From: Verrucomicrobiota bacterium | GTDB taxonomy: Bacteria; Verrucomicrobiota; Verrucomicrobiia; Verrucomicrobiales; DEV007 | Direction: 5' to 3' | Assembly: GCA_020630975.1 (NCBI GenBank) | Contig: JAHDID010000006.1 | Coordinates: 91,182 to 155,181 of the forward strand | Length of the DNA: 64,000 bases | Shown: positions 7,427 through 40,149 of the stretch, piece after piece | How the letters are laid out: the number at the start of each line of letters is the position of its first letter | How positions within the stretch are numbered: the first letter of the stretch is position 1 | Program-made: the position numbers and the translations under genes | The notes under the pieces: model-generated | What the model was told of the DNA's origin: nothing | The model's database searches: none | The model's input: only the letters and a program-made list of their open reading frames with translations

Positions 7427-9511
7427 TTAGCGCCTTTTTCCGACTGAGGTATTACGATTTGCCACGCTTTGCCCGCCGCCCGTGCTGGGTGAGAATTTCG
7501 GCACCGTTATCTTTGGCACCTTCAGATTGCCGAGACCAGGTTTCTCTTTCTTAAAGATCGAGCTACCGCTACTACGATCGACCACCTCCGCATCACGATG
7601 ACGCTGTGGCAGCTGCAGACTTGGCAGCTCCGGCTTGGGGATCAGCTCCTTGGTCTTTTGCACCATATTGCCTGGCACGCTGGCGAGACCACCGTCGCCC
7701 GAGAGATTGGGGCCTTTTAAGTTTGAGAAAGGCATCTTGACTCCTGGACCGTCACAGGTCTCAGTGGCTTCTTTGCAAAAGATCTGTGGGACCTTAAACA
7801 TTTTAGCATCTGCCTCATTCTCTTCAGCTTCTAGCTCCTTGGTTTTCTGCAGGCCATCGCTAGTCATCATCCAGCCTCTACTCTCTTCAGCAGGCTGGAT
7901 TCCGTTTTTCTTGGAGTATTCCCACTTCACACCTTTTTTGTTAGCCCGCTTTCTGTGCAGCGAGTTATCCACATCCCTGCCCAGTGAGAATAGCTTCGAG
8001 AGAGGCATATTCCCCGGCTGCTCGGTGACTTCGGGGATGGGTTCTGGCTCGTGAGATGGAACAGCTTTCAGGCCACCACCCACAGTCTCATAAAGAGCTA
8101 CTGTGGCCTTAGCCAAGGTGCTTTGAGAGAATAAAAGGACTTCAGCTGCGGCAAATCTCCGATCCTGCAGACGAACGAGGTTTGAGGCATCCACGAGGCC
8201 TTCTTTGAAACCACTGATGACATCGTCGGCGGATTTATTCCTGATCTCCAACTCCGCCTGCTGAGCTACCATCTGTTTTTTGGTGTAGTGGATCGTAGCC
8301 AGTGCGATCTCTACCTCCATGAGTGCCTGTCTGACAACGGCCTCGTACTCACGAATGGCAGTATCCAACTTTGCTTTTTGCTCATTCACACGCGCACGAT
8401 CTGCTCCACCGTGTCCAATCCTCTGTCGTAATCTTGGCCCTCCACCAATCGAGTGACGTAAAATGTCTTCCACACCATTTCGAAATAGGGACTCATAAGT
8501 GATCGCTCCCTTCAGATTGAAGTCGGGGTAATAATTTCCCATCGCCACACCGATATTAGACACCTGGACGGCTAGTTTTCTCTCAGCCACCTGAATATCA
8601 GGTCGGTTTCGCAACACCTGCATCGGCAGTGGTGCTGAAATACAACTTGGCATCTTGGGGATCACCGAGCTTTTGCCGCATCCCATAATCTCCTCGATCC
8701 TAGCTGGGGGTAAGGCGCAGATGCGACTCAGATTGTAGATCGCCTCTGCTCTACTCTGCTCAAAACGTGGAATATTCGCCTGCTCTTGGATCGTCCGCCC
8801 TCTGGCCTCATCTAGATTGATTCGACTAGCCAAACCTGATCTGACGAGCATCTCTGAAATATCTTCACCCTCCTTCAGTTTGGCTATCTTTTCCTCCGAC
8901 AATCGGATCCGTGCTTCCGCCACTCTCGCATTCACATAGTAGAGTGCCGTACTCGATGTGAAAAAGACGTAGCTATCTCGGTACCCCTCAACAACCGATT
9001 CCATGAATCGATCTGACGACTCGATCATCCTGTGCCTCTTTCCAAAGACGTCAAAACTCCAACCTTGGGAAATTTGTGCAAAATTATAAACTGGCTCACC
9101 CGGATCGAACTTCAAGCCATCGCTGAACCCTCCAAGTCCAATATCGTAATCGCCAAGAAAGTCATGGCCGGGGAAGTACCATCCCCTCAGGACATTTCGT
9201 TGTGCCCATGCCTCCTCGACACGTGACCTGCCTCGTAGAACCTTAGGATTTGCCTTCCGAGCCTGATCAATCAAGCAGCTCAAAGTGTCGTCTGTGAATT
9301 CATTCCACCATCTCTCTACAGCTTCGTCGGAATAATCTCGATTTGGGTTCTTCGGGTCGAAACCAGCTCTAGCGCCTTCCGGAACATGCCAATCATCTTG
9401 GATGTCCGTCATCACAGGTTTTTTATAATTCGGCCCGATCGTGACGCACGAGGTGAGCATGCCGCAGGCTAAAAATACGGCTATTAGTGGGAGTTGAGTG
9501 GGTGGTTTCAT
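7427..9511 (-). CDS. Outer-membrane efflux lipoprotein (TolC/NodT family) with a long low-complexity C-terminal tail
   Basis: Lipobox LTSC followed by VTIGPNY; P.QVLRNRPDIQVAER NodT motif; about 200 extra K/P-rich residues after the TolC core. Confidence 0.85.
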   Translation of the reverse strand: MKPPTQLPLIAVFLACGMLTSCVTIGPNYKKPVMTDIQDDWHVPEGARAGFDPKNPNRDYSDEAVERWWNEFTDDTLSCLIDQARKANPKVLRGRSRVEEAWAQRNVLRGWYFPGHDFLGDYDIGLGGFSDGLKFDPGEPVYNFAQISQGWSFDVFGKRHRMIESSDRFMESVVEGYRDSYVFFTSSTALYYVNARVAEARIRLSEEKIAKLKEGEDISEMLVRSGLASRINLDEARGRTIQEQANIPRFEQSRAEAIYNLSRICALPPARIEEIMGCGKSSVIPKMPSCISAPLPMQVLRNRPDIQVAERKLAVQVSNIGVAMGNYYPDFNLKGAITYESLFRNGVEDILRHSIGGGPRLRQRIGHGGADRARVNEQKAKLDTAIREYEAVVRQALMEVEIALATIHYTKKQMVAQQAELEIRNKSADDVISGFKEGLVDASNLVRLQDRRFAAAEVLLFSQSTLAKATVALYETVGGGLKAVPSHEPEPIPEVTEQPGNMPLSKLFSLGRDVDNSLHRKRANKKGVKWEYSKKNGIQPAEESRGWMMTSDGLQKTKELEAEENEADAKMFKVPQIFCKEATETCDGPGVKMPFSNLKGPNLSGDGGLASVPGNMVQKTKELIPKPELPSLQLPQRHRDAEVVDRSSGSSIFKKEKPGLGNLKVPKITVPKFSPSTGGGQSVANRNTSVGKRR

Positions 9512-9615
9512 AATAAAAAATCCGCACTAGATGGGAAAATTTAATATTTGCAAAAAAACCATATAATAACGTATAATAAAGTTAAAATTTTAATTTTGTT
9601 AAATTTTCTACTAAT

Positions 9616-11037
9616 TTGAAAAAAATCCTCCAACGGATCAAAGCCCTGCTCCTCGCTTTGCTCCTGTATAATCGGGGCTTGAGCATCGCCACGGTTGCCA
9701 TCGGCATTGCTGGGCTGGTCATTATGGCTGTGGTCGTAGCCCCAGCCTACATGTCTCCGAAAAGTCGGATGTACACCTCTTCCCTTGGCTATGGAGCGAT
9801 GAAGCGGAATCTGAATCTGCCATTCGACGTGAAATCTGCAGAGGTGAAGCGCAAGCGGGTGATCATCCCCTACCTCGGCGAGGGCATCGTATCTGGAGAG
9901 CCCATCCGTGTGCCTCTGATCCCCCTCGCTACCATCACTAAGGTCCATGTAAAAGAAGGCGACCAAGTGAAGAAGGGCGAGCTTTTACTCGAGCTAGAAG
10001 ATACCAAAGCTAGGCGAAATCTGGCAGCAGCAGAGCTAGCACTGGCGACCGTCGAGGCCGAGCTCAAACGAGTCGAGGGCGGATCCGCCTTCGTCTTGAT
10101 AGCCGAGCGCCCCGAACAGGATAAAATCGAACTCGAAGCAGCTAAAAAAGAGCTCATCGTGATCAACGATAAGCTTGCCTCTCTACAAGACCTGATCGAC
10201 AAAGGAATCGCTCCAGCCTTCCGCATCGCCGATATGAGGAAGGAGAAAGCTGCCGCGACCGCAAGGGTAGAGAGTGCTGAGCTATCTATCAAGCGCGCCG
10301 AATCCGGTGTCAGCCAAAGTCTGCTGATCGCCCAAAATGCGGTCGAGGATGCACGCCAAAATGTCGAGTATCGTAAGGTGGAACTCGAAGGGCACAAGAT
10401 TTACGCCCCCAGAGACGGTCTCATCTCCGCTGTTCTGGTAAGGGAGGGTGAATTTAACCAGGACCTCGGTAAACCTGCCTTTCTACTCACGGCAGGCCTA
10501 TGGTTCGAGGGCTTTTTCGATCAGGCCGTGCTCAGTCGGGTGAAGCCTGGTATGAAAGGCTCGATCTTTCTCGAAGCCTTTCCAGGTAGAGAATTCCCAG
10601 CTACCGTCGCTCAGATCATTCCTCAAGTCACCTTCGCGACAGGCGGTCCAGAGATCAATCGCCCAATGCGTCCTCGCGGAACAGGTGCGCCAGAGTGGGC
10701 TGCTACTTTCAGTGTCCGCTTCAGTCTAGATAATCCAGGCGAAGCGACACTGGGTATGACTGGCAATGTGAAGCTGATCGTAGATACCGAGGCCACCGTC
10801 ATCCATCGAAACGCCCTGCTATCCATAGCAGCCGGCCGAGCCATCGTCATCCAAGAAGACGAGATCGATGGCCAATGGCTCCGCATCCCGATCGAAACGG
10901 GCTACATCGGCCACAAATGGGCCGAGGTGAAAAATGGACTAAAGCCGGGTACCTTCGTGCTGGCAGACGGGCATCGCATCCTGCGGGAAGGCGATCAGAT
11001 AAGATCCACGGTGCTAGAGTGGAGCACTGGTGAGTGA
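9616..11037 (+). CDS. Periplasmic adaptor / membrane fusion protein (HlyD/RND-MFP family)
   Basis: N-terminal TM; VHVKEGDQVKKGELLLEL and IYAPRDGLISAVLVREGE lipoyl half-motifs around a coiled coil. Confidence 0.88.
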   Translation: MKKILQRIKALLLALLLYNRGLSIATVAIGIAGLVIMAVVVAPAYMSPKSRMYTSSLGYGAMKRNLNLPFDVKSAEVKRKRVIIPYLGEGIVSGEPIRVPLIPLATITKVHVKEGDQVKKGELLLELEDTKARRNLAAAELALATVEAELKRVEGGSAFVLIAERPEQDKIELEAAKKELIVINDKLASLQDLIDKGIAPAFRIADMRKEKAAATARVESAELSIKRAESGVSQSLLIAQNAVEDARQNVEYRKVELEGHKIYAPRDGLISAVLVREGEFNQDLGKPAFLLTAGLWFEGFFDQAVLSRVKPGMKGSIFLEAFPGREFPATVAQIIPQVTFATGGPEINRPMRPRGTGAPEWAATFSVRFSLDNPGEATLGMTGNVKLIVDTEATVIHRNALLSIAAGRAIVIQEDEIDGQWLRIPIETGYIGHKWAEVKNGLKPGTFVLADGHRILREGDQIRSTVLEWSTGE

Positions 11038-11182
11038 TGCCAGATACTTGCCAGTATTGGCACTACATCGATGAAGCGATGCTTGGTCTGATACCCATCC
11101 GCTCCTGCATCCCTTCATGTCGAAAGACTTAGCATCCTGAAGGAGGGGAGCCGATCAGCTACAAGTTGATCATTCTATCTAC

Positions 11183-11205
11183 GTAGGGTCAGCTTGCAGC
11201 TGACC
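11183..11205 (+). repeat. Single GTAG-headed REP-like hairpin
   Basis: GTAG + GGTCAGCT-TGC-AGCTGACC (perfect 8-bp stem). Only one copy seen. Confidence 0.3.
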
Positions 11206-11263
11206 GACAGGCTGAGGCGCTTAAACCGTAAGCTATATGGAAATCTGAGATTTCCCACAGGGC

Positions 11264-11298
11264 AAAAAAAATTGGAGGCAGTGAACTACCTCCAATTT
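11264..11298 (-). terminator. Intrinsic terminator of the methyltransferase gene
   Basis: Minus strand AAATTGGAGGTAG-TTCA-CTGCCTCCAATTT followed by a T run. Confidence 0.8.
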
Positions 11299-11331
11299 GG
11301 ATTTAGGTTAGAGTTTAGATCTTCTTAGTAT

Positions 11332-12195
11332 TTACACTGTAGCTGACTCTTGCTCTTCTTGAGCAGCAGCAGCGGTGTTGTCATTAGATTGCTCAGCCAC
11401 TTCGTGATGCTGAGTCGTGACTGCAGCTGGCTTTTTGCAGAAGTAAACGATCTCTTCCATCGGTAGCGCATGCTTCTTAGCACGCTCTTCTGGCATCTCC
11501 ATCACCCAGCGATCCTCGACCACTTCGAATCCTGCTTCTTCTAAGCGACGACCATAGTCCATACCGAAAAGGCGAACATGATCATCCTGCCAGAAGTGCT
11601 CCTCACGATCCTTGGGATCGGTGATGCTAGGATCTTCGTAAGTGTCTTCGCGGCTGTAGTCCTGCGGGCTCTGGATCAGTGCCCAGCCACCAGGACGCAG
11701 CACACGGCATAGCTCAGACATCGCTTTGATATCGTCGTCTACGTGCTCCATCACATGGTTACAGAAAGCCACGTCAAAACTATTGTCTCGGAAAGGCAAC
11801 TCATGAACATCACAATGTACGTCCGCTAAAGGGGAAATCAGGTCGGCAGTGACGTACTTGTCGTGAATCTCAAGGTTACGAAAACGGTCCAAAAAGCAAA
11901 ACTCAGGTGCAACGTGAAGAATCTGCTTGGAATCAGTGAAGAAGTCCGTCTTCTCCTGAAGGTAAAGCCACATCAGGCGGTGTCTCTCCAGTGCCAGACA
12001 CTTCGGACACAAGGCATTCTCTCTGGGTTTCAAGCGACCATAGGTCAGGAACTTTGCGTATTTCGCATCGCAGATCGGACACTCAACATCTTTGCCCCTA
12101 TGCATGAGACCAGCCAGGGGGAGTAATTTGTGAGCAAACTTCTGCAACACGTGACGGGGGATCTTCCTCAAAACGAGGCTAGTTATTTTTTTCAT
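11332..12195 (-). CDS. Class I SAM-dependent methyltransferase (type 11) with N-terminal CxxC...CxxC
   Basis: CPICD...CPKCLALERHR, ILHVAPE, LPFRDNSFDVAFCNHVMEHV, RVLRPGG. Start moved to ATG 12195. Confidence 0.88.
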   Translation of the reverse strand: MKKITSLVLRKIPRHVLQKFAHKLLPLAGLMHRGKDVECPICDAKYAKFLTYGRLKPRENALCPKCLALERHRLMWLYLQEKTDFFTDSKQILHVAPEFCFLDRFRNLEIHDKYVTADLISPLADVHCDVHELPFRDNSFDVAFCNHVMEHVDDDIKAMSELCRVLRPGGWALIQSPQDYSREDTYEDPSITDPKDREEHFWQDDHVRLFGMDYGRRLEEAGFEVVEDRWVMEMPEERAKKHALPMEEIVYFCKKPAAVTTQHHEVAEQSNDNTAAAAQEEQESATV

Positions 12196-12475
12196 GAATT
12201 TAAACAATACACCAAAGCTGTACTTCCTTCAATCTCGTTGTTATGGTTTTTATAAAAAATTCAAATATTTTCTCGATTTAAGGGTCTAAAACTTGATGAT
12301 ATTTAAATTTTAATGTAAAATTTTATTAAATTTATAAAAATCTTAATAACCTCGATAGCCCCATAATCCTCAGCCGTATGCCCTCTGGCCACACGCCCCT
12401 GACCTCTCTCCTGGTTCGACATCGAGTTCGATTCAGCGGTCCCGTGTTGTTAGCTTGCCATCCCAAATTCACGAA

Positions 12476-14227
12476 ATGGTCCAACGAGTAAAAGATTTCT
12501 TACTGCTCTGCTGGGCCGTGCTGATATGGCCGTGGCAGAAAGTCTACAATGTCACCATCTTTCTGGGACGACCGGTATACCGCCCCCTCTCCCGTATAGT
12601 AAAATGGGTGATCAGGCTGGGCATCGCTATAGTCAAAAGGCTGCTCAATACTCCTCTAGGTCGGAGAGTATGGGGAATCGCGAAGTCTCTCTGCCACTGG
12701 GCTATCAACTGCGAAGTCGGCCGCTGGCTCAGGCAGCACCTCATAACAGCCAATCCCAACATCCCTAAACTCGTTGGCGATGGGATCGGTGTGGTCGGCC
12801 TCTTGTTCCTCGCTGTCTCTCTCAAAGAAGACTGGTACATCGTCCCAGACCAGATCATAGAAAATGAAGATGGTGACTACATAGTGACCACTCTAAAGAG
12901 TGATTACGAGAAATACCTAAAGGCCATGCTAGCCGCAGCGGCGTTCTTTTTCATCACCGTGATGTTCATTACTCGTAAAGATGTCTTCAAGCGGACACGC
13001 TGGCTAGGCAACTTTGCCTGCCTAGTGTTTGTGACGACATTTCTGTTTTCACAGCTCGTCATTATCGATTCGGAACTCGGGCACCTCGCCGCCGTCCACA
13101 TCTCTCACCATGATAACCTCTGGTGGTATGGTGGCGACATCACCACTAGCCGAGGCCAGGAGGTGTATGGCTATGCTACCGACTATATCGCCAAGGACTT
13201 GCCATTTGCTGTCACAGCGATCCCCGTGCCCTATGCAGCTCAGTCACTAGCCAGCCTAGCAGACTACCTGTCGTGGACTGGTATGTGCCCGGCGTTTTGG
13301 TACTACTTTCAAAAAGGCTGGGGCATGCTCGGGCTTTCAGCGATCTTCTTACTGATCAGCTCGCTATGCGTGAGGCTCGATACCGACCAAAAAGGCCTAG
13401 CCAGCGATGTCGTGGCATGGACGATCAAGCGCGCAGGCAAGGTCATGATACTGTGGTTCTTCCTGATCTTCATCCGTACTCAGCTCTGTGCCCACTATAT
13501 CGAAGAAGCCCGTATAAGCTTCGAAAAGACCGAGATCAAACAAAGCCTCGCCCACCTCGAAACTGTCGGGAAAATCCTGCCCACCATGTACTGGAACAGC
13601 AACCTCACGTTCCAAAGAGGTATGCTAGAGCAACGGGCAGATATGAAGACTCCTGCTGCGGATCTGTACACCGCCTACAACCTCGAGGTCGCTGGCCGAA
13701 ACCAGGCGGCGATCAATATGTACAACGAACTCGTCGAGCAGGAAGTCGATCCCCAAGCTCAACTAGAGGCCTATCGCGGCTTGATGAGGATGGCGATCAT
13801 CGATTTCAACTCTTCTATCTACCCTCGGTATGAGAAATCCATGGCTAGGGTAGAAGAAAAGTACCCCACTCTGGCTAAAATGCTATGGCTCAGATTCATC
13901 ATGGCAGTGCGGAAGCACGACTACTACACCGCCCGTGAATACCAACGGCGGCTCTATGCCAGCGGCAATGCTCAAGCCATGCCTAACAAGCGCGCCTACC
14001 TAGCATCGTCGCACCAGTACATGCAGATGATGGCATTCGATATGGGCAAACCAGACCTCGCCTGGCAACAGAATATCTTCCGGATGGAGCTCCACCCCAA
14101 TGGAGCGAGGAGAGATGATATGCTAGAGGAGTACCCTTTCCTGATTACAGATATCGAGAGAACTCCCACTACAGATAACACCAAAGAGGTCGAAGCAAAA
14201 GCCGCAGAACAGGAGGGCGAAGGCTAG
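12476..14227 (+). CDS. Polytopic membrane protein with C-terminal helical-repeat (TPR-like) region
   Basis: Several hydrophobic segments, then amphipathic helices (e.g. GRNQAAINMYNELVEQ). First ATG is at 12476; ORF track starts at TTG 12455. Confidence 0.65.
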   Translation: MVQRVKDFLLLCWAVLIWPWQKVYNVTIFLGRPVYRPLSRIVKWVIRLGIAIVKRLLNTPLGRRVWGIAKSLCHWAINCEVGRWLRQHLITANPNIPKLVGDGIGVVGLLFLAVSLKEDWYIVPDQIIENEDGDYIVTTLKSDYEKYLKAMLAAAAFFFITVMFITRKDVFKRTRWLGNFACLVFVTTFLFSQLVIIDSELGHLAAVHISHHDNLWWYGGDITTSRGQEVYGYATDYIAKDLPFAVTAIPVPYAAQSLASLADYLSWTGMCPAFWYYFQKGWGMLGLSAIFLLISSLCVRLDTDQKGLASDVVAWTIKRAGKVMILWFFLIFIRTQLCAHYIEEARISFEKTEIKQSLAHLETVGKILPTMYWNSNLTFQRGMLEQRADMKTPAADLYTAYNLEVAGRNQAAINMYNELVEQEVDPQAQLEAYRGLMRMAIIDFNSSIYPRYEKSMARVEEKYPTLAKMLWLRFIMAVRKHDYYTAREYQRRLYASGNAQAMPNKRAYLASSHQYMQMMAFDMGKPDLAWQQNIFRMELHPNGARRDDMLEEYPFLITDIERTPTTDNTKEVEAKAAEQEGEG

Positions 14228-14232
14228 CCCCT

Positions 14233-17200
14233 ATGAGACCGCACCACTGGGTATGGAACAAAGTTGCAGTCACTTCCGTGTTTCTCGCTGCAGCGGCTAT
14301 TACTATGTTCGTATTCGAGTGCTACAGCATCATCAAGCCCCCCGATAAACGCATTTTCCCATTCACCTTCCCCGACGACGCACACTGGATTGTTTCCCAA
14401 GGCGATGAACAGGCTGGTGCCCACTACCGCATCGACTTCGAGATACCCGCTTCCGAGATCGAGATCGCTTGGGCAGCGATCAGCGCCGACAATGGTTTCG
14501 AGATCGTCACCAATGGCAGTCAGAGCGCCAAATGGGAGTTTTTCCGCGGTACACGCCCGTTCGGATCGGGCAATTCAGAGTTTGGCCAAAAGATGTATTA
14601 CGCATCTTCAGCACTAGCGTTGAACTTCCCCCGTGAGTACCAATGGAGTACCCACGCCAACTGGAAGACATCGGTATTTGTGGACCTGACAAAAGACTTC
14701 AAGGCCGGCTCCCACAATAGTATAACCGTACTCGCGCACTCTAGGCATGAGCGTCCCAGCTTCATCCTGACCGGCGAGATCAAACTCAAAAACGGCCAGG
14801 TCATACCACTCCGTAGTAACGATAGTTGGCGGGCCTGCTTCACCACACCCACACACACTAGGCAAGAGTGGATCATCCCGCAGATATCGGTCGACCACTG
14901 GGACTACTGCAAAATCCTAGACCACCTACCTAGGAAACAGTTCAGGCTGATACCTGATGGTATCTTCACAGAAACCTTCCGAGGCGCCTGGCTACCGAAA
15001 TCCGACTCCAAGAAATACCAAACCACATGGGATATCGATGATGTTGATGGCGAAGAGTGGGTCCGTGTGATGTCCACCGAGCCTTATATCCTGAGGATAA
15101 ACGACAAAAACGTTCGCCCAAACTGGGGCCGACGCAACCACTACGCCGAGGGCGGCTGGATGCTAAAAACGACCAATCGAAGCTTCCTACAGATCAAACC
15201 TGAAACCCTAGATACCGATGAGATATCGGATGTGTTTTCAGGAAAAGGCTATCTCAACCCCAAACACGGCCGCCCAAGCGAAAATGAGCCTATCTCCGGT
15301 GAGCGAGAGTACCTATCAGGTCGTGAGATGCAGGACAATCCCGCCTACGGCAACCTCATGAAACGAGCCAATGAGGAATTCCTCGAAAGGCCTTCTCAGG
15401 CTGACCCGATGAATGAAATGGTGAGCACACGTACACCTCCGAGTCTGACCAAAGCCTATCAAGCGCCCAACTACAGTGCTTTTCAGGTCGCGAAATACCT
15501 AAAAAAGGGACGTAATAAGATAGAACTGGAGCTCTACCCCACCTACCGAGAGAGCAAATTCTACGGCCTACAAGCCGAGCGAATCTCAATGGATGCGGGC
15601 GTCATCAATGAAGAAGGGCAGTGCGACTGGGGTATCGATGAATCTACCGAATGGATGACCGATGGCAAAAAGGTACTTGGCGGCCGGATGCCTCTCTCCA
15701 ACCAAAACAAACTCCGCTATTTCCAAACGTGGAAGGAACGAAACCTCTTTTTCCCATATGGCATAGGCACACTGATCGTTGCCTATATCCTGTTATTTTT
15801 AGCAAACGTTTCCAGCCGGAAAGTGCAGAGGTTCCTGAAGTATTATGAGCGCCCTTTTGCAGCCTTTGTGGTGATGCTACTTTGCCTAGGTCTGCTCAAG
15901 TCAGCAATGGCTGAGCGGAGCGAGATCATTTTCTTCGAAGCCAATCCGATGTGGCCGTGGATTCGATTTCTCTCCGCGTTAGGAGTCGCCCTGTGGCTGG
16001 CTTGGCTCCCCATCCAGAAGAAAGAGAAATGGTCAGAGCCCTCCATTTCGAATAAATGGGTCATCTTCGGTATCTTACTCGTGATCTTGACTGTCGCATT
16101 TTGCCTACGCGGCTACAAAATGCACATGCAACCTCTAGACGACGATGAATACGCGTCGGTTCAGGCATCTCTTTCCGTGGCTCGTAAAGGGCTACCCGAA
16201 CTATTTGATGGTATCTTCTACACTCGCGGTCCCCTTTTCCACTACGTTTCCGGAGCCTTAGCCAAGATTTTTGGCTCGACTATCGTGACGCTGCGTTTTT
16301 ACAGCATCGGCGTCGGCGTGCTCTGTATTCTATTCACCTACAACCTATGTTCTCGGGTGCTACAGAACCGTCGAATGGGCCTGGCGGTAGCCATTGTACT
16401 GGCGGTACACCCGTTCTGTGTCTTCACCTCTCATATTGCTCGATTCTATCAGCAACAACAGCTTTTCACCGTCTTAGTGGTACTATTTTTCATCCGAGGT
16501 TTCGTGTATGATGCGCCAAACTGGAAACGCTTCGCCGCCGTTATCTGCTTTGGCGCGGCTACGCTCAGCCAAGAGATCAGTCTGTTGCTCATTGTTCCCT
16601 TAGGGCTGAGTTATGCCACGATGTCGCAAAAACAGTCTTGGGCAAACGAACTGAAATTCGTTTACTGCGGTTGCCTAGTGGTAGCCTGCATCGGCATCAA
16701 TATGGTGATCTTCCAATTCCTATGTCTCACTCGGACGTCAGGAAAATCGGCCACTGTGGAGTCGACTTTGACTCCCCACTTCTGGGAGCCGATGAATGCA
16801 TTTAGCCAGTGGATCTGTTACTCGAGACTTCACATTTTCTTCGGCCTATTTTCATTCATCGGTATGGCAGTCGCGATGCGACGACGAGATATGGGTATCA
16901 TTGCTGTCACCTTTTTCCTAGTATTCGGAGTTCTTACCACGGTGATCCTCGTGACGGGCTTGGGATTTCGGTACCAGTATTCGTACACCCCACTATTCTT
17001 CGTGGTGGCAATCTATGGCATTCACTTTGTCTGCAGCTACGTGTCGGAGGGACGAGGCCGACAGGCGCGGATTGTCGTCTCTGGTCTCGTCGTGGGTATC
17101 GGTATACTCAGTTTCAGCCCATGGCGTATCTTCGACAGCTACGACGAGCGTATTTTGCCCGACTCCTCGAGTGCGACCAACTTTGTGAAAGCCAACTTCC

Positions 17201-17610
17201 GTCCTGGCGATAAGGTGGCTATCAATGAGCCTCATCCACATGCTGCCTTGATCGAGATAGGTCACTCCAACTACGATATCTGTCAGCCGATTCTCTATGA
17301 CTTTGTATTTCGCGAGAAAGACGGTCGCCTGATCGATCGCAACGGCGGTGCGGAGTCGGTGGGCCGAGTGAGCGTGATTCAGCGCATCATGGCTCAGCAC
17401 GATCGGATCTGGTTCATCCTAAACCGAGAGAAATTTAAGAACCGTGCCCGAAACCTGCGCTGGGAGTATCCCGGAGCTAGACTTGACCTGCTGGTGAGGA
17501 AGAACTGCCCTCTCATGTACCAGGCCTACTCCTGGGAGGTCTACCTATGGGACCGCGGAAATGGGCGTTTTCACCCATTCCGCATGGAACCCGAAGGCTT
17601 TAGCGAGTGA
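14233..17610 (+). CDS. GT-C fold glycosyltransferase (GT39/ArnT/PMT-like) with large extracytoplasmic N-terminal region
   Basis: 1125 aa; LDDDEY acidic loop after a TM, YTRGPLFHY, R.ARFYQ; many TMs; N-terminal jelly-roll-like segment AWAAISADNGFEIVTNG. Confidence 0.75.
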   Translation: MRPHHWVWNKVAVTSVFLAAAAITMFVFECYSIIKPPDKRIFPFTFPDDAHWIVSQGDEQAGAHYRIDFEIPASEIEIAWAAISADNGFEIVTNGSQSAKWEFFRGTRPFGSGNSEFGQKMYYASSALALNFPREYQWSTHANWKTSVFVDLTKDFKAGSHNSITVLAHSRHERPSFILTGEIKLKNGQVIPLRSNDSWRACFTTPTHTRQEWIIPQISVDHWDYCKILDHLPRKQFRLIPDGIFTETFRGAWLPKSDSKKYQTTWDIDDVDGEEWVRVMSTEPYILRINDKNVRPNWGRRNHYAEGGWMLKTTNRSFLQIKPETLDTDEISDVFSGKGYLNPKHGRPSENEPISGEREYLSGREMQDNPAYGNLMKRANEEFLERPSQADPMNEMVSTRTPPSLTKAYQAPNYSAFQVAKYLKKGRNKIELELYPTYRESKFYGLQAERISMDAGVINEEGQCDWGIDESTEWMTDGKKVLGGRMPLSNQNKLRYFQTWKERNLFFPYGIGTLIVAYILLFLANVSSRKVQRFLKYYERPFAAFVVMLLCLGLLKSAMAERSEIIFFEANPMWPWIRFLSALGVALWLAWLPIQKKEKWSEPSISNKWVIFGILLVILTVAFCLRGYKMHMQPLDDDEYASVQASLSVARKGLPELFDGIFYTRGPLFHYVSGALAKIFGSTIVTLRFYSIGVGVLCILFTYNLCSRVLQNRRMGLAVAIVLAVHPFCVFTSHIARFYQQQQLFTVLVVLFFIRGFVYDAPNWKRFAAVICFGAATLSQEISLLLIVPLGLSYATMSQKQSWANELKFVYCGCLVVACIGINMVIFQFLCLTRTSGKSATVESTLTPHFWEPMNAFSQWICYSRLHIFFGLFSFIGMAVAMRRRDMGIIAVTFFLVFGVLTTVILVTGLGFRYQYSYTPLFFVVAIYGIHFVCSYVSEGRGRQARIVVSGLVVGIGILSFSPWRIFDSYDERILPDSSSATNFVKANFRPGDKVAINEPHPHAALIEIGHSNYDICQPILYDFVFREKDGRLIDRNGGAESVGRVSVIQRIMAQHDRIWFILNREKFKNRARNLRWEYPGARLDLLVRKNCPLMYQAYSWEVYLWDRGNGRFHPFRMEPEGFSE

Positions 17611-18592
17611 CCTCAGCCTCGTTACTCGCTGGCTGCGACTCAGGCTCTTTACCCGAAAGGTATTGGCTAACCAGAATACCTGCTAAAGCAACCATCTCGA
17701 CAGCTAACTGCAAACCGCGCCAAAGGACGGCTGAAGCAGCCGCCACGGTGAGCAAACCAAGTGGCTGGAAAATCGCGGCCACTACACCCTCTCGTATCCC
17801 CATACCACCGGGTACACCGACTGCGACTAGACCGACGAGCCAACCTAAAGCATTCGCTCCAGCTGCTGGCAGAAATCCAATCGTCTCGTTACCGGCTAAA
17901 GCGAGAAAACAAAAGTAAAAGCCAAAGCTATATACCAGGTTTAGCACGATATACTCCACCAGCGCCTGTGTTATCTTTTTGGGATGCTTCACCTCTCCGA
18001 CTAGAGATACAAACAGGCCCTTAAACTTTTGCACAATCTTCAGTTTCGAATATTTGAGCACACAAAAAACCATCACCCCCGAACCAATAGCAAGGCTCGC
18101 GACAATGATTGCAAACGACAGGTAGTCAATATCTAGCTGATCGATCAAAGTCAGGATGAACCCTCCCGCGCACAAACCAAAGACAGCGATGACAGACCAC
18201 GAAATGACGGTCAAACTCAGCTCCAAAGTCAGGCTAAGACCGCCGATCACCTTGTTGCCGCCAAATTTACCCGCCTCCACAGCTCTGGAGGCGTAGCCCC
18301 AGAAACTGCCAGGCAGCCATCTGAGTGCCTCGCATTTCATCCAGGTCATCGCGGCCTCTCGCCTCTTCACTGGGACGCCAAACGACTGTAGCACCACACC
18401 CCATATCGAAGCATTTATCGGTAGGTAAACAATTGCCAACAAGAAAGCGGCAACCACCCATATCCAATTGGCCTCAGTGAGTAATTCCACTATCTTTTCG
18501 CGCATGCCATACAGCGCGACTCCCATCAGTACTAGGACGATGGGAAGAAAAAACGGCTTAATGACTGTGAACAGTTTCTTTAGCGCTTTCAT
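17600..18592 (-). CDS. Lysylphosphatidylglycerol synthase TM / UPF0104 putative flippase
   Basis: About 8 TMs; RWLPGSFW..ASR and VPGGMGIREG motifs. Confidence 0.82.
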   Translation of the reverse strand: MKALKKLFTVIKPFFLPIVLVLMGVALYGMREKIVELLTEANWIWVVAAFLLAIVYLPINASIWGVVLQSFGVPVKRREAAMTWMKCEALRWLPGSFWGYASRAVEAGKFGGNKVIGGLSLTLELSLTVISWSVIAVFGLCAGGFILTLIDQLDIDYLSFAIIVASLAIGSGVMVFCVLKYSKLKIVQKFKGLFVSLVGEVKHPKKITQALVEYIVLNLVYSFGFYFCFLALAGNETIGFLPAAGANALGWLVGLVAVGVPGGMGIREGVVAAIFQPLGLLTVAAASAVLWRGLQLAVEMVALAGILVSQYLSGKEPESQPASNEAEVTR

Positions 18593-19880
18593 AGTCTAGC
18601 GTTTTACTCGTAGCAGGCTGCACACTGTGGCTCACCATCTTAGGATGTTCGTCTGCCGCTGCCACTTCGTCTAAGATATCTGACAGGCGCAGGATGATAT
18701 TATCCCACGAAAAGAACTTCACTCCAAACTCGAAGCCACTCTGCCCCAGGGCTGCCGCTTCGTCTGGATTCGCCAGTAAGTACGTGATTTTATCAGCCAA
18801 TTGAGCCGGTTGCTTTTCATCGACTAACAAGCCACTGACACCCTCTTTGATCACATCGACGATACCGCCGACGGCAGAAGCCACGACAGGCTTTTTATTG
18901 GCCAGGGCCTCTACTAGCACCACGCCCAGACCTTCGGTGTCACCACGGCTGTCGATGATCGATGGGTGAACGTAGATGGTACAATTACGATACAGGTCAG
19001 ATAGCTCTTCGTTCGAGATGTACCCTGTCATCGTCACAGAGTCTTCGAGCTTCAGCTTCTTGATCCATTCTTCGCACTCGGCACGCTTATCGCCGTCGCT
19101 GGTGATCACCAGCTGCGCGTCTGGATAGACTTCTAGCACCTGTGGCATAGCCTGTATCAGATAGGGATACCCTTTTCTCTCGATCACCCGGCCACAAGAC
19201 AGCAGTAAAGGAGCCTTTGTCTCTGATTGAGTCAATTCGGCCTCTACCTCCTTGGCCTGATTCTGTACAGTAGACCCATAAGTCACGATCTCGATCGCCA
19301 AGTCTTCACACTTAGGCAGGCTACGAATTTGTGCTTCGGTATGCGAGCTGTTGCAATACACCAAGTCGGAATGACGCAAACACCAGCTGAGTACACGCTG
19401 CAAATGAGGTTTGTTTCGCACAATGCATAGCTCCGCGCCATGGCACACTGATACGATTTTAGTGCCGGCGATACGTGCTCCTGCCCAGGCCATCAGGCCG
19501 TGGGGAAATGGCCAGTGTACCTTGACGATGTCGGGTCGATTCTTGATCAAATACCGAGTGGTGTAGGCAAACCCTGCCACCAGGTACGGGATGGCTCTGA
19601 GCTTAGTCAGCGGGTGATTAATCTTGTTGGGCGCACCAGAATCATGCGTCAAATTCTCACTCCCTTTGGGTAGGTAGCGGTAGCGGTTCACCTTGATACC
19701 ATCGATAGAATGCGATTCTAGCCCCTCAAAGGCTGGTGCGATCACCTCTACCTGGTGACCCAAATCTTTGAGCCTTATATTCGTCTCCCGCATCCAGGGG
19801 ACTTGGGGATCGGTATCGTATCTGGCGTATGTCGAGGTGAGAACGGCTATCGATGGGAGTTTTTTGTACAGGGAGTTCAT
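18558..19880 (-). CDS. Glycosyltransferase family 4
   Basis: GRVIERKG, EGLGVVLVEALANKKPVVASAVGGI. Confidence 0.93.
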   Translation of the reverse strand: MNSLYKKLPSIAVLTSTYARYDTDPQVPWMRETNIRLKDLGHQVEVIAPAFEGLESHSIDGIKVNRYRYLPKGSENLTHDSGAPNKINHPLTKLRAIPYLVAGFAYTTRYLIKNRPDIVKVHWPFPHGLMAWAGARIAGTKIVSVCHGAELCIVRNKPHLQRVLSWCLRHSDLVYCNSSHTEAQIRSLPKCEDLAIEIVTYGSTVQNQAKEVEAELTQSETKAPLLLSCGRVIERKGYPYLIQAMPQVLEVYPDAQLVITSDGDKRAECEEWIKKLKLEDSVTMTGYISNEELSDLYRNCTIYVHPSIIDSRGDTEGLGVVLVEALANKKPVVASAVGGIVDVIKEGVSGLLVDEKQPAQLADKITYLLANPDEAAALGQSGFEFGVKFFSWDNIILRLSDILDEVAAADEHPKMVSHSVQPATSKTLDYESAKETVHSH

Positions 19881-19922
19881 TGTTTTGTTTTTGGGAGGAG
19901 GGAAAAAAGGAGGGAAAACAGT

Positions 19923-21251
19923 TTAGTTGAGAGCTTCGTTTGCCTGACCTATCAACTCTCGCCTTGCGACAGGTTTGGGCAGGAAGCAGGCGGCACCGGC
20001 CTCTCTGACCAGATCAGGTAATTCAGAACTCTTGTCGCCGGAGAAACTAACGAGCCGTGCACTAGGGGCACGTGTCTGCAGCTCTTTGAGCGCTGTGGAG
20101 TGGTCTCGCCCTGGCATGTGCACATCGACAAATGCGATCGAGATCTCCTCGTCGATTGCTTCGATTGCCTCATCTGCACTCTTGGCAGATACCACTTCCC
20201 AGTCCTCACGCTTGAGCATTTCGGTGATCAGACGATTCACGCGTGGATCATCATCTGCGACTAGCGCTTTTCTGCGCGAGCGGAATACGAATGGCTGTGT
20301 CGGAACATCATTTCGGCTTTCGACGACTTCACTATCACTTTCGGTGTCGACTTGCATCTGACTCCAGATGTTCAGCTCAGCTATGATGCCATTGAAAAAT
20401 AACAGCAGTCCACTGGTCAGTCCCGCAGTAGAAATTACCACGCCAGTGATCAATAGAAACCGTGGGACATCAAAGAATCCAACCAAGGCTGCAGTCAAAA
20501 TCGAGAACAAACCCAGAAGTAAACTCGCGGTAGCCATCACATGATTCGGACGTTCGCGGTACCGACGAATGAAACCAATCGTAATGATATCTGCGATACC
20601 GTGAAAAAATCGTCTGGTACCATACTTGCTTTTACCGTGCACCCGCGGGTGATGTCTTACTACTATCTCACCCGTCTCAAATCCAAAAATCCCAGCGATA
20701 GTCGGTACCATCCGGTGCATCCCACCATACATCGGCAGCACCTTCACGACCTCTCTTCGATAGCACTTGAAGCCACAGTTGTGATCATGCAATGATACCC
20801 CACCTACCCTGCTGATCAGTGAATTAAAAATCCGGCTAGGCAGTACCTTGTGCCAAGGATCGTTGCGTCGTTGCTTATGACCGGTCACGATATCCAGTTT
20901 GTCATCGACGATCTTCTGCAAAAAATTAGGGATCTCAGCCGGATCATCCTGTAGATCGGCATCCATGGTGAAGACAAAGTCTCCAGTCGCTCTTTTGTAA
21001 CCCGCAGCCAATGCATTGGCCTTGCCAAAATTGCGGCGCTTACGGATCAACTTCACTTCTTTGGGGTATTCCGCAGCGAGTTGCTCCATGCGGCTCCAGG
21101 ACTGGTCCGTACTGCCATCGTCGATGAAGATCACTTCGATCGCACTCGATACTGGCTCAGCATGGGCTTTGATGCCCTCAAATAATTCAACGATTGTCTC
21201 TTCTTCATTCATCGTGGGGACGATGAATGACAGGTAGGGTTTTTTGGTCAT
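19923..21251 (-). CDS. GT2 polyprenol-phosphate glycosyltransferase (ArnC/DPM-like) fused to a C-terminal receiver (REC) domain
   Basis: IVPTMNEE, FIDDGSTD, NFGKANAL, MDADLQDDP, DHNCGFK; 2 TMs; then LVADDD...VDVHMPG...SFSG...FLPKP. Confidence 0.9.
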   Translation of the reverse strand: MTKKPYLSFIVPTMNEEETIVELFEGIKAHAEPVSSAIEVIFIDDGSTDQSWSRMEQLAAEYPKEVKLIRKRRNFGKANALAAGYKRATGDFVFTMDADLQDDPAEIPNFLQKIVDDKLDIVTGHKQRRNDPWHKVLPSRIFNSLISRVGGVSLHDHNCGFKCYRREVVKVLPMYGGMHRMVPTIAGIFGFETGEIVVRHHPRVHGKSKYGTRRFFHGIADIITIGFIRRYRERPNHVMATASLLLGLFSILTAALVGFFDVPRFLLITGVVISTAGLTSGLLLFFNGIIAELNIWSQMQVDTESDSEVVESRNDVPTQPFVFRSRRKALVADDDPRVNRLITEMLKREDWEVVSAKSADEAIEAIDEEISIAFVDVHMPGRDHSTALKELQTRAPSARLVSFSGDKSSELPDLVREAGAACFLPKPVARRELIGQANEALN

Positions 21252-21385
21252 TCTTTAAAATCTGGTAGGTTTTATGAAATATAATTATCATAAATACCAT
21301 AGCAATTGATTTTTTGAAATCTTACCTCATCTACCCTGATAATTAAGGTTTCTTAATGAGACCACTGGGCCTCGTCTGAAATTCG

Positions 21386-39162: not shown

Positions 39163-39822
39163 TTACCACTGAACCTCATCGAGTTCTGAATATTGCTCCA
39201 GATAAGCATCGCAGCAGCCGCTCAGGACGATGGCGTCGCCCTGTTTGGTGGCTGAGATTGGGGAAAGTGCACGGACGATTTGACCGCCCACGGCTAAAAG
39301 AAGTCCAGGAATAAGGGTGACGATACTGAGGGTGACGGCACCCACTAGCACCATGAGTATCCCTAGGCCAGATAGAGTCCACCCTAGAGCCGTCTGCACT
39401 TTGTGGTTCTCGTTGGCTTTATTGCTCAAACCCAGCTCAACGACAACTGCAGGCTTCAGCCAAGAGACTGGATTGGTCGGAGAGCTCAGTCCTACGGACT
39501 TGGTGACCTTCGACTTACGGCCGGTCTTGGGGCACTGGTGAGTGTGCGGCATGGCTCCATTCTCAAAAAAGAGCTTTTTACCCGCTCGATAAGCTGTCGG
39601 CTGGGCAGCTGGCTGTGGAGCCTGCTCGACCGCCTGAGGCACTACCGCCTGGGGCTCGTCTGATGGCACAGGCAGCACATCCATATGGCCCTGCGCCGGC
39701 GGCACGGGCTGCTGTTGTGCTGGCGGCACCGGCTGGGCTACCTGTGCTGGTGGCACCGGCTGAGGCTGCGCTGGCGGCACCGGCTCAGGGGTCGGTGGGA
39801 GAGGTTGGGTTGACTGGGTCAT
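39163..39822 (-). CDS. Membrane protein with Pro/Gln-rich N-terminal repeats
   Basis: PVPPAQ repeated four times; CPKTG motif; two C-terminal TMs. Confidence 0.72.
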   Translation of the reverse strand: MTQSTQPLPPTPEPVPPAQPQPVPPAQVAQPVPPAQQQPVPPAQGHMDVLPVPSDEPQAVVPQAVEQAPQPAAQPTAYRAGKKLFFENGAMPHTHQCPKTGRKSKVTKSVGLSSPTNPVSWLKPAVVVELGLSNKANENHKVQTALGWTLSGLGILMVLVGAVTLSIVTLIPGLLLAVGGQIVRALSPISATKQGDAIVLSGCCDAYLEQYSELDEVQW

Positions 39823-40149
39823 TATTCTATCTGGTTGGATTTGGTTTATTTGTTGTAAAAAGCGTGTGGACCGGCGTTACCTTTTGCAGACTGCTATATT
39901 TCGCTCAATCCTTGGAAATTGTGACAAAAAAATTCTGAAATTCCTGTTACAATTGATGGGGATTTTATAGGGTTCGTAATCTTCAGTGTCGTTCTTTCAA
40001 AAAAACGTCCCTTTAGCGGAGGTTTTGTAGCAAGTAAAGTGCCAGTCACTCACAAAAAAACATGAGACAACACCACTGACGATTCCGTTGCAGATTTATT
40101 GCTTTTTTATAATCGTGACGTCTGCCCACATGTGGCTATGGTCGAATGC

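Follow-up and report, generated by a model that had tools for sequence, protein, structure and literature searches.

The 64,000-nucleotide stretch of Verrucomicrobiota DNA analyzed here (the window; positions 91,182 to 155,181 of contig JAHDID010000006.1) contains a gene, which we call GT2-REC, whose product combines a family 2 glycosyltransferase (GT2) of the ArnC/GtrB/DPMS type, two transmembrane (TM) helices, a disordered linker, and a canonical receiver (REC) domain. We propose, at a slightly better than even probability, that a His-Asp phosphorelay acts post-translationally and directly on the supply of a lipid-linked sugar through this protein. The proposal builds on the architecture of the protein, on the conservation of the fusion, and on the relay genes that adjoin some of its relatives. 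Genomes, contigs, loci, and proteins are designated below by G, C, L, and P numbers, respectively; the source genome is G000, and the window lies on its contig C33.

The original prediction, made from the letters of the window, described an ArnC/DPM-like GT2 followed by two TM segments and a REC domain, and Pfam, hydropathy, and an AlphaFold2 (AF2) model all bore out this description. Pfam matched residues 8 to 170 to Glycos_transf_2 (PF00535; E value, 2e-33) and residues 330 to 435 to Response_reg (56.9 bits against a gathering cutoff of 30.2; E value, 2.7e-15). In sequence searches of the PDB, the nearest solved structures were those of ArnC (1.5e-37), GtrB (3e-23), and DPMS (1e-19), and the REC part matched receivers of the CpxR, RpfC, and CheY types. 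The same three glycosyltransferases were the top Foldseek matches of the AF2 model (probability, 1.00). Furthermore, D44/D45, the DXD motif D97-A-D99, and D156 of the glycosyltransferase domain were invariant in an alignment of 37 homologs, and their codons were checked. Among NCBIfam models, ArnC ranked first and PgfS second. Orthology to ArnC itself was rejected, since the protein scored 145.8 bits against a cutoff of 529 for the ArnC equivalog NF007986 and its locus contains no arn genes. The GT2 family has the same phyletic profile as a 1125-amino-acid GT-C glycosyltransferase encoded nearby: among 201 Verrucomicrobiales genomes sampled, the two occurred together in 7, and neither occurred in the rest. 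Homology and this strict co-occurrence predict that GT2-REC, like GtrB, ArnC, and DPMS, is a polyisoprenyl-phosphate glycosyltransferase, which would transfer a monosaccharide from a nucleotide sugar to undecaprenyl or polyprenyl phosphate.

The receiver retains every catalytic motif that the original prediction had named, namely the DDD pocket (D334 and D335 in ADDD), the phospho-acceptor Asp in VDVHMPG (D376), the Ser in SFSG (S404), and the Lys in PKP (K426-P427 in LPKP), and each codon was checked. Beyond these five signature positions, it has the aromatic switch residue F423. The domain had been placed at about nucleotides 19923 to 20270; we delimited it to residues 326 to 442, i.e., nucleotides 19926 to 20276. 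The AF2 monomer model, built on the 37 homologs, had a mean pLDDT of 84 and comprised a confident GT-A domain, helices at residues 212 to 231, 235 to 259, and 264 to 301 (hydropathy gave hydrophobic segments at about 237 to 260 and 265 to 291), and a receiver with the (beta/alpha)5 pattern at residues 328 to 441 (pLDDT, 93 to 97). Between the helices and the receiver, pLDDT fell below 50 at residues 299 to 309 and 312 to 324, so that the stretch from 299 to 324 is predicted to be disordered. With such a linker and a pTM of 0.60, the inter-domain geometry of the model was unusable, and we discarded it.

GtrB consists of a GT-A domain, juxtamembrane helices, and two C-terminal TM helices, and its C terminus is cytoplasmic (PMC4728340). 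Because GT-A domains use cytoplasmic nucleotide sugars and the chain is back inside after its two TM helices, the REC domain of GT2-REC should likewise be cytoplasmic and, by analogy with GtrB, should be attached at the interface with the neighboring subunit. This topology logic and the GtrB precedent (PMC4728340) upheld the cytoplasmic receiver on which the original prediction depended and led us to reject a periplasmic one. From this attachment point, the receiver might plausibly act on the active site or on the tetramer.

Synechocystis GtrB (sll0501; PDB 5EKP), ArnC (9HWJ, 9BHC, and 8VXH), and archaeal DPMS (5MLZ) share with GT2-REC the GT-A domain with its DXD motif, the juxtamembrane helices, the two C-terminal TM helices, and the cytoplasmic C terminus but, unlike GT2-REC, have no receiver or other signaling domain. 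The only catalogued fusions of REC and GT2 that we found are those to BcsA-like GT2s in Methanobacteriaceae, such as MTH_548, from a census of archaeal two-component systems (PMC5847659). In those proteins, too, a receiver is covalently joined to a family 2 glycosyltransferase, and they are also uncharacterized; however, they are archaeal, their REC domain is N-terminal and occurs in one or two copies, and their output is processive and cellulose synthase-like (PF13641) (PMC5847659). In contrast, the REC domain of GT2-REC is C-terminal and lies behind the two TM helices of a lipid-carrier sugar synthase. Enzymes are a well-known kind of response-regulator output, and CheV and PhyR are response regulators whose REC domain follows the effector domain; they differ from GT2-REC in being soluble and in having non-enzymatic effector domains. 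The original prediction knew of no characterized example of the GT2-TM-REC architecture, and our full-text literature searches found none either, nor any mention of a receiver attached to a lipid-carrier sugar synthase, Galperin's 2006 bacterial census not being covered by these searches. Automated annotation labels some homologs "glycosyltransferase/CheY-like".

The fusion recurs widely among homologs. Among the 120 best clusters at 90% identity, 108 were 420 to 500 amino acids long and aligned end to end with GT2-REC; the fused clusters were drawn from NCBI, JGI, ENA, and Logan and included complete genomes, for example, that of Roseibacillus persicicus (CP151838). An assembly or gene-calling artifact is almost inconceivable in view of a single uninterrupted frame, an architecture found in more than 100 clusters, and a second copy in the same genome, which disposes of the absence from homologs or chimerism that the original prediction had raised against itself. 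All names attached to fused homologs belonged to Verrucomicrobiota (Roseibacillus, Rubritalea, Akkermansiaceae, and Verrucomicrobiaceae). No fused protein was found outside this phylum; among the matches listed in the contig scan, there were mostly unfused Planctomycetota homologs. The restriction to Verrucomicrobiota thus means "not found elsewhere" and is not proven. At 50% identity, the fused family collapsed to fewer than 10 representatives and is therefore compact.

In a tree of the GT2 domain (FastTree, LG+gamma, midpoint-rooted; residues 5 to 236 of 193 sequences, omitting the duplicates L017 and L098, the truncated L024, L081, and L099, and twelve proteins of ∼620 to 640 amino acids), all fused proteins fell into one clade; ∼75 homologs without the fusion, belonging to Planctomycetota and other phyla, branched outside it. 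As the base of the fused clade was weakly supported (0.57), a single origin of the fusion is likely but not proven. A small unfused subclade was nested in the fused clade (support, 0.94) as the sister (0.84) of the group that contains the window protein, which suggests a secondary loss of REC. Several high-scoring GT2s of ∼620 to 640 amino acids (P0008, P0010 to P0017, and P0121, one of them named Desulfobulbaceae) lack REC and instead end in a long C-terminal extension of another kind. It appears that other tail domains have been added to this same core.

The full canonical receiver signature was present in 52 of the 108 full-length homologs. The window protein belongs to a clade (P0001 to P0005; support, 1.00) whose five members are all canonical, with the signature DDDSFK, and all six positions are kept across proteins that are 53 to 59% identical. 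In this clade, nothing argues against phosphorylation of the receiver. In the family as a whole, an Asp aligned with the phospho-Asp in 95 of the 108 homologs, and the residue was lost in 12. Degenerate receivers belonged mainly to two large clades, of the QDDFAK and DKDP types, where substitutions have removed the acid pocket, the Thr/Ser, and the aromatic residue. The receiver has degenerated repeatedly, yet all of these proteins retain the domain, so that a single enzyme displays naturally the passage from receiver to pseudo-receiver.

The source genome encodes a second GT2-REC, 53% identical to the window copy, on contig C88 (L016:4615-9745). It directly follows a gene for a 266-amino-acid REC-Hpt protein, and a PAS-HisKA-HATPase-REC-REC kinase gene is divergent from the REC-Hpt gene. 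Pfam detected no other Hpt domain in the genome, which yielded 76 REC matches and 40 HisKA matches; hybrid kinases account for at least 20 of the HisKA matches. Hybrid kinases need an Hpt; either many kinases of this bacterium funnel through one Hpt, or diverged Hpt domains were missed. The receivers of the two GT2-REC paralogs matched each other best, at 39% identity and 1e-26, and the other ∼74 receivers of the genome matched at 5e-9 or worse. At the position where relatives have an H-NOX gene, C88 carries an orphan gene for 167 amino acids. We rejected it as a diverged H-NOX, since its product showed no similarity to H-NOX, matched no Pfam family, and lacked homologs in all fetched loci. 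Three H-NOX genes, each beside a kinase gene, are present elsewhere in the genome (C158, C48, and C40).

REC-Hpt genes adjoin GT2-REC systems in four genomes (the G000 paralog, L005, G178, and G251) and are immediately upstream of GT2-REC in two of them. L005 shows the order H-NOX and kinase (60% identical to the C88 kinase), REC-Hpt, and GT2-REC. In G178, which belongs to a different genus of the same family, a 10-kb stretch contains genes for REC-Hpt, H-NOX with a hybrid kinase, a PA14 protein, GT2-REC, a GT4 glycosyltransferase, a flippase, and an NtrC-type regulator, and a second GT2-REC copy lies inside an OEP-to-GT4 locus. The full set of H-NOX, hybrid kinase, Hpt, and a nearby terminal receiver occurred in L005 and G178. 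The G251 locus, which is of the same type as that of the window, comprises GT2-REC, GT4, flippase, MFP, an unknown protein, GT-C, and OEP, with REC-Hpt at its end, and this REC-Hpt keeps the HxxKG histidine. Loci with an unfused GT2 showed similar neighbors, namely H-NOX, a PAS hybrid kinase, and an NtrC-type sigma-54 regulator in L019 and L100 (partial at the end of the stretch in L100) and an adjoining hybrid kinase in L105. R. persicicus has a fused copy accompanied by GT4 and flippase genes and, in a locus flanked by H-NOX and kinase genes, an unfused one. Phosphorelay control, as advanced in the original prediction, is therefore supported by the REC-Hpt, PAS hybrid kinase, and H-NOX genes that adjoin GT2-REC elsewhere and by the paralog of the source genome, and the co-occurring kinases that it had called for are the hybrid kinases found beside GT2-REC in relatives and on C88.

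A comparable relay is known in Vibrio fischeri, where HnoX-HahK acts through SypF(Hpt) on SypG, a sigma-54 regulator, and on SypE to control the syp polysaccharide locus (PMC12369376), and a Vibrio H-NOX/HqsK pair feeds LuxU (PMC6759604). The likeness lies in an H-NOX paired with an Hpt-requiring hybrid kinase, an NtrC-type regulator nearby, and a surface polysaccharide as the target. However, the Vibrio relays have transcription, partner switching, or cyclic di-GMP (c-di-GMP) as their outputs, whereas here one output of the relay would be the glycosyltransferase itself.

In the mechanism that we propose, GT2-REC would load a monosaccharide onto polyprenyl phosphate at the cytoplasmic face of the membrane, and the product would serve the co-inherited 1125-amino-acid GT-C as its donor on the outer face. 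Both enzymes belong to a conserved locus, with a presumed role in envelope glycosylation and export, that also encodes the GT4, an MprF-like flippase, a membrane protein, an MFP adaptor, and an OEP channel (Table 1). We infer that a His-Asp phosphorelay phosphorylates Asp376 and that the donor is most likely the single REC-Hpt of the genome, fed by a PAS hybrid histidine kinase that is paired in relatives with an H-NOX heme gas sensor. For the REC-Hpt as the donor of the window copy specifically, we set the probability at a little under half of that of the proposal as a whole. Phosphorylation would alter catalytic output either through packing of REC on the GT-A domain or through REC dimerization acting on the tetramer; the direction of that change, like the sugar and its acceptor, is a matter of conjecture. 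Control in one Verrucomicrobial branch would then be partly hard-wired, by fusion of the terminal receiver to the synthase of the lipid-linked sugar donor. An H-NOX/PAS hybrid-kinase phosphorelay that has the glycosylation and export system as its output would be the simplest account of these neighborhoods. A bolder version, to which we give somewhat less than an even chance, is that GT2-REC may be the first response regulator with a membrane-embedded lipid-carrier sugar synthase as its output, and that an H-NOX (nitric oxide or other gas) His-Asp-His-Asp relay might gate the polyprenyl-phosphate sugar within seconds and without transcription, feeding an undescribed Verrucomicrobial machine of GT4, MprF-like flippase, giant GT-C, and MFP/OEP.

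Most known control of bacterial surface glycans operates at transcription or through c-di-GMP acting on processive synthases, and we found no description of direct signaling control of the enzymes that charge lipid carriers (the relatives of GtrB, ArnC, and DPMS). The GT2-REC family would be a hard-wired and genetically compact case, with a mutable phospho-site, a candidate donor, and cultured relatives (Roseibacillus), and the canonical, degenerate, and REC-less versions of one enzyme in the same conserved locus make natural comparison groups. In a phylum that is abundant in the environment, it would connect the sensing of gases by H-NOX with glycosylation of the envelope. It also brings a conserved GT4/flippase/GT-C/MFP/OEP system to attention.

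Several observations weigh against direct phospho-control. There is no kinase, Hpt, or H-NOX gene within the 64-kb window around GT2-REC (none of the 40 HisKA and 51 HATPase_c matches of the genome lies in C33:91182-155181, as the original prediction had noted for histidine kinases), so that the window copy can be linked to a relay only through the paralog and other genomes, and gene neighborhoods among related genomes are not independent evidence. The Akkermansiaceae G297, G300, and G303, whose receivers are canonical, yielded no stand-alone REC-Hpt at an E value of ≤1e-25. The disordered linker and the pTM of the model provide no predicted inter-domain interface or structural mechanism. Finally, in 56 of the 108 homologs, the signature is broken at the acid pocket, the Thr/Ser, the aromatic position, or the phospho-Asp, and as degenerate receivers persist, the fusion is retained without phosphorylation in parts of the family; a fused domain can thus be useful without being phosphorylated. 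These last data would suit a pseudo-receiver that works independently of phosphorylation as an oligomerization or docking module for the tetramer or for partners such as the GT4 and the flippase, the canonical residues being ancestral leftovers. Indeed, the QDDFAK-type and DKDP-type clades keep both the domain and the locus in spite of their degeneration, and the two degenerate-clade loci examined (L003 and L018) have no signaling genes within ±10 kb. We nevertheless regard a pseudo-receiver as unlikely for the window protein, whose clade has conserved all six positions at the divergence given above, and REC-Hpt lies immediately upstream of two family members. Moreover, L019, the sole locus with an exclusively unfused copy and a fully seen NtrC-type regulator, keeps the relay, which argues for a tie between signaling and the glycosylation system.

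If the receiver is phosphorylated, information might instead flow in reverse or sideways, with the membrane enzyme serving as a phosphate sink or relay tether that tunes the flow of phosphate to a transcriptional regulator, for example, of the NtrC type found in relatives, and not being regulated itself. One Hpt serving many hybrid kinases, the NtrC-type sigma-54 regulators in the same neighborhoods, and the two GT2-REC paralogs in both G000 and G178 would fit such a role, which we consider improbable: it has no positive evidence, there is no sigma-54 promoter motif upstream of the window operon, and enzyme control is the simpler explanation both for a fusion to the synthase of the committed lipid-linked donor and for its perfect co-occurrence with the GT-C. 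A working receiver could also control the enzyme but take its phosphate from an unlinked orphan kinase or a small molecule and not from the REC-Hpt/H-NOX relay. The window without relay genes, the Akkermansiaceae members without a detectable stand-alone REC-Hpt, and the ∼40 HisKA kinases of the genome speak for another donor. However, REC-Hpt adjoins GT2-REC in four genomes, including at the G251 locus of the window's own type, and the two paralogous receivers form a private subfamily within their genome, so we see only a slim chance for this alternative. Direct control of GT2-REC by the relay is the reading that we retain.

The features of the locus are given in Table 1. The triad of GT2(-REC), GT4, and flippase genes recurred in L002, L003, L004, L006, L097, L107, L018, and L019, and the set of adaptor, 590-amino-acid protein, and GT-C genes recurred in L003, L007, L018, L019, and L107 and partially in L100 and L105. 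Taken singly, the HlyD/MFP adaptor was syntenic in L003, L007, L018, L019, L100, L105, and L107, where weak syntenic homologs of the 590-amino-acid protein were also found upstream of GT-C, and the OEP was syntenic in L007, L019, L100, L105, and L107. The 1125-amino-acid GT-C is the presumed user of the lipid-linked sugar.

Table 1. Features of GT2-REC and of the glycosylation and export locus (window positions)
Feature	Position	Strand	Basis
GT2-REC gene, 442 amino acids plus stop	19923..21251	-	ATG-start open reading frame; Pfam GT2 and Response_reg; >100 full-length homologs
Cytoplasmic GT-A catalytic domain and juxtamembrane helices, residues 1-231	20559..21251	-	PDB sequence and Foldseek matches; checked codons
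Two transmembrane helices, residues 235-301, with a very short outer loop between them	20349..20549	-	Hydropathy; AF2; GtrB-like layout
Acidic linker, residues 302-325, poorly conserved	20277..20348	-	pLDDT; length varies across the alignment
Canonical cytoplasmic REC domain, residues 326-442	19926..20276	-	Pfam; pLDDT; signature residues
Codon GAT of the predicted phospho-acceptor Asp376	20124..20126	-	Codon check; homolog alignment
GT4 glycosyltransferase, 42 bp downstream of GT2-REC	18558..19880	-	Pfam; synteny
Flippase-like membrane protein (LPG_synthase_TM/UPF0104), start overlaps GT4 stop	17600..18592	-	Pfam; NCBIfam TIGR00374
1125-amino-acid GT-C (PMT_2/ArnT-like), converges on the GT4 and flippase genes	14233..17610	+	Pfam PMT_2
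590-amino-acid protein without Pfam family, conserved locus member	12455..14227	+	Synteny
S-adenosylmethionine methyltransferase, probable locus member	11332..12207	-	Pfam; a methyltransferase also ends the L003 locus
HlyD/MFP periplasmic adaptor	9616..11037	+	Pfam; synteny
Outer-membrane efflux protein (OEP/TolC-like), left locus edge	7427..9511	-	Pfam; synteny
Sigma-70-like -35/-10 (TTGCTA-16-TATATT), weak evidence	21278..21305	-	AT-rich 134-bp gap upstream; site count not above chance

The combination of a polyprenyl-phosphate-sugar GT2, a flippase candidate, and an outer-face GT-C resembles the three-component systems GtrA/GtrB/GtrC, ArnC/ArnEF/ArnT, and CsbB/GtcA/YfhO. It differs from them in that the flippase candidate is MprF-like (LPG_synthase_TM) and not GtrA- or ArnEF-like, in that the locus always includes a GT4, an MFP adaptor, and an OEP channel, and in the very large size of the GT-C (1125 amino acids). 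The substrate of the flippase candidate could instead be a glycolipid made by the GT4. In the mycobacterial synthesis of phosphatidylinositol mannosides and lipomannan, a GT4 builds a glycolipid inside, which is flipped and then extended by a GT-C from a polyprenyl-phosphate-sugar. The set of GT4, MprF-like flippase, sugar synthase, and GT-C resembles this logic, and we speculate that the product may be a glycolipid exported by MFP/OEP.

The G+C content of the region from 7427 to 21251 was 0.511, against 0.567 and 0.539 for its flanks. The congeners sampled numbered 27 at the order level and 30 at the genus level, the two samples overlapping. At the thresholds used, none of the 27 congeners of the order-level sample matched either the GT2 or the GT-C, and a search for the GT2 in five further congeners at a laxer threshold, an E value of ≤1e-20, returned only generic GT2 matches, with 28 to 35% identity, or none. 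The locus is thus accessory in the source genus, and with its low G+C content and its absence from the searched congeners, the 14-kb region looks like an island. The closest congeners were too fragmented or too diverged for Fpg to be seen beside CCP, the arrangement expected of a site without this putative island.

A complete copy of the locus, with an unfused GT2 nested in the Verrucomicrobial clade, was present in L019 (JBLHPP010000008.1), from a metagenome-assembled genome labeled Crocinitomicaceae and binned as Bacteroidota. L019 comprises genes for an NtrC-type regulator, H-NOX, a hybrid kinase, OEP, the unfused GT2, GT4, flippase, MFP, a homolog of the 590-amino-acid protein, and GT-C. 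This placement points to horizontal transfer or mis-binning.

In view of the NtrC-type regulators of relatives, a sigma-54 promoter upstream of the window operon was considered and rejected, as positions 21252 to 21385 contained no match to the -24/-12 elements. The only zero-mismatch site of the window, a perfect sigma-54 -24/-12 consensus (TGGCACTTTACTTGCT), lies on the minus strand at positions 40029 to 40044, just upstream of an open reading frame on the same strand (39163 to 39822).

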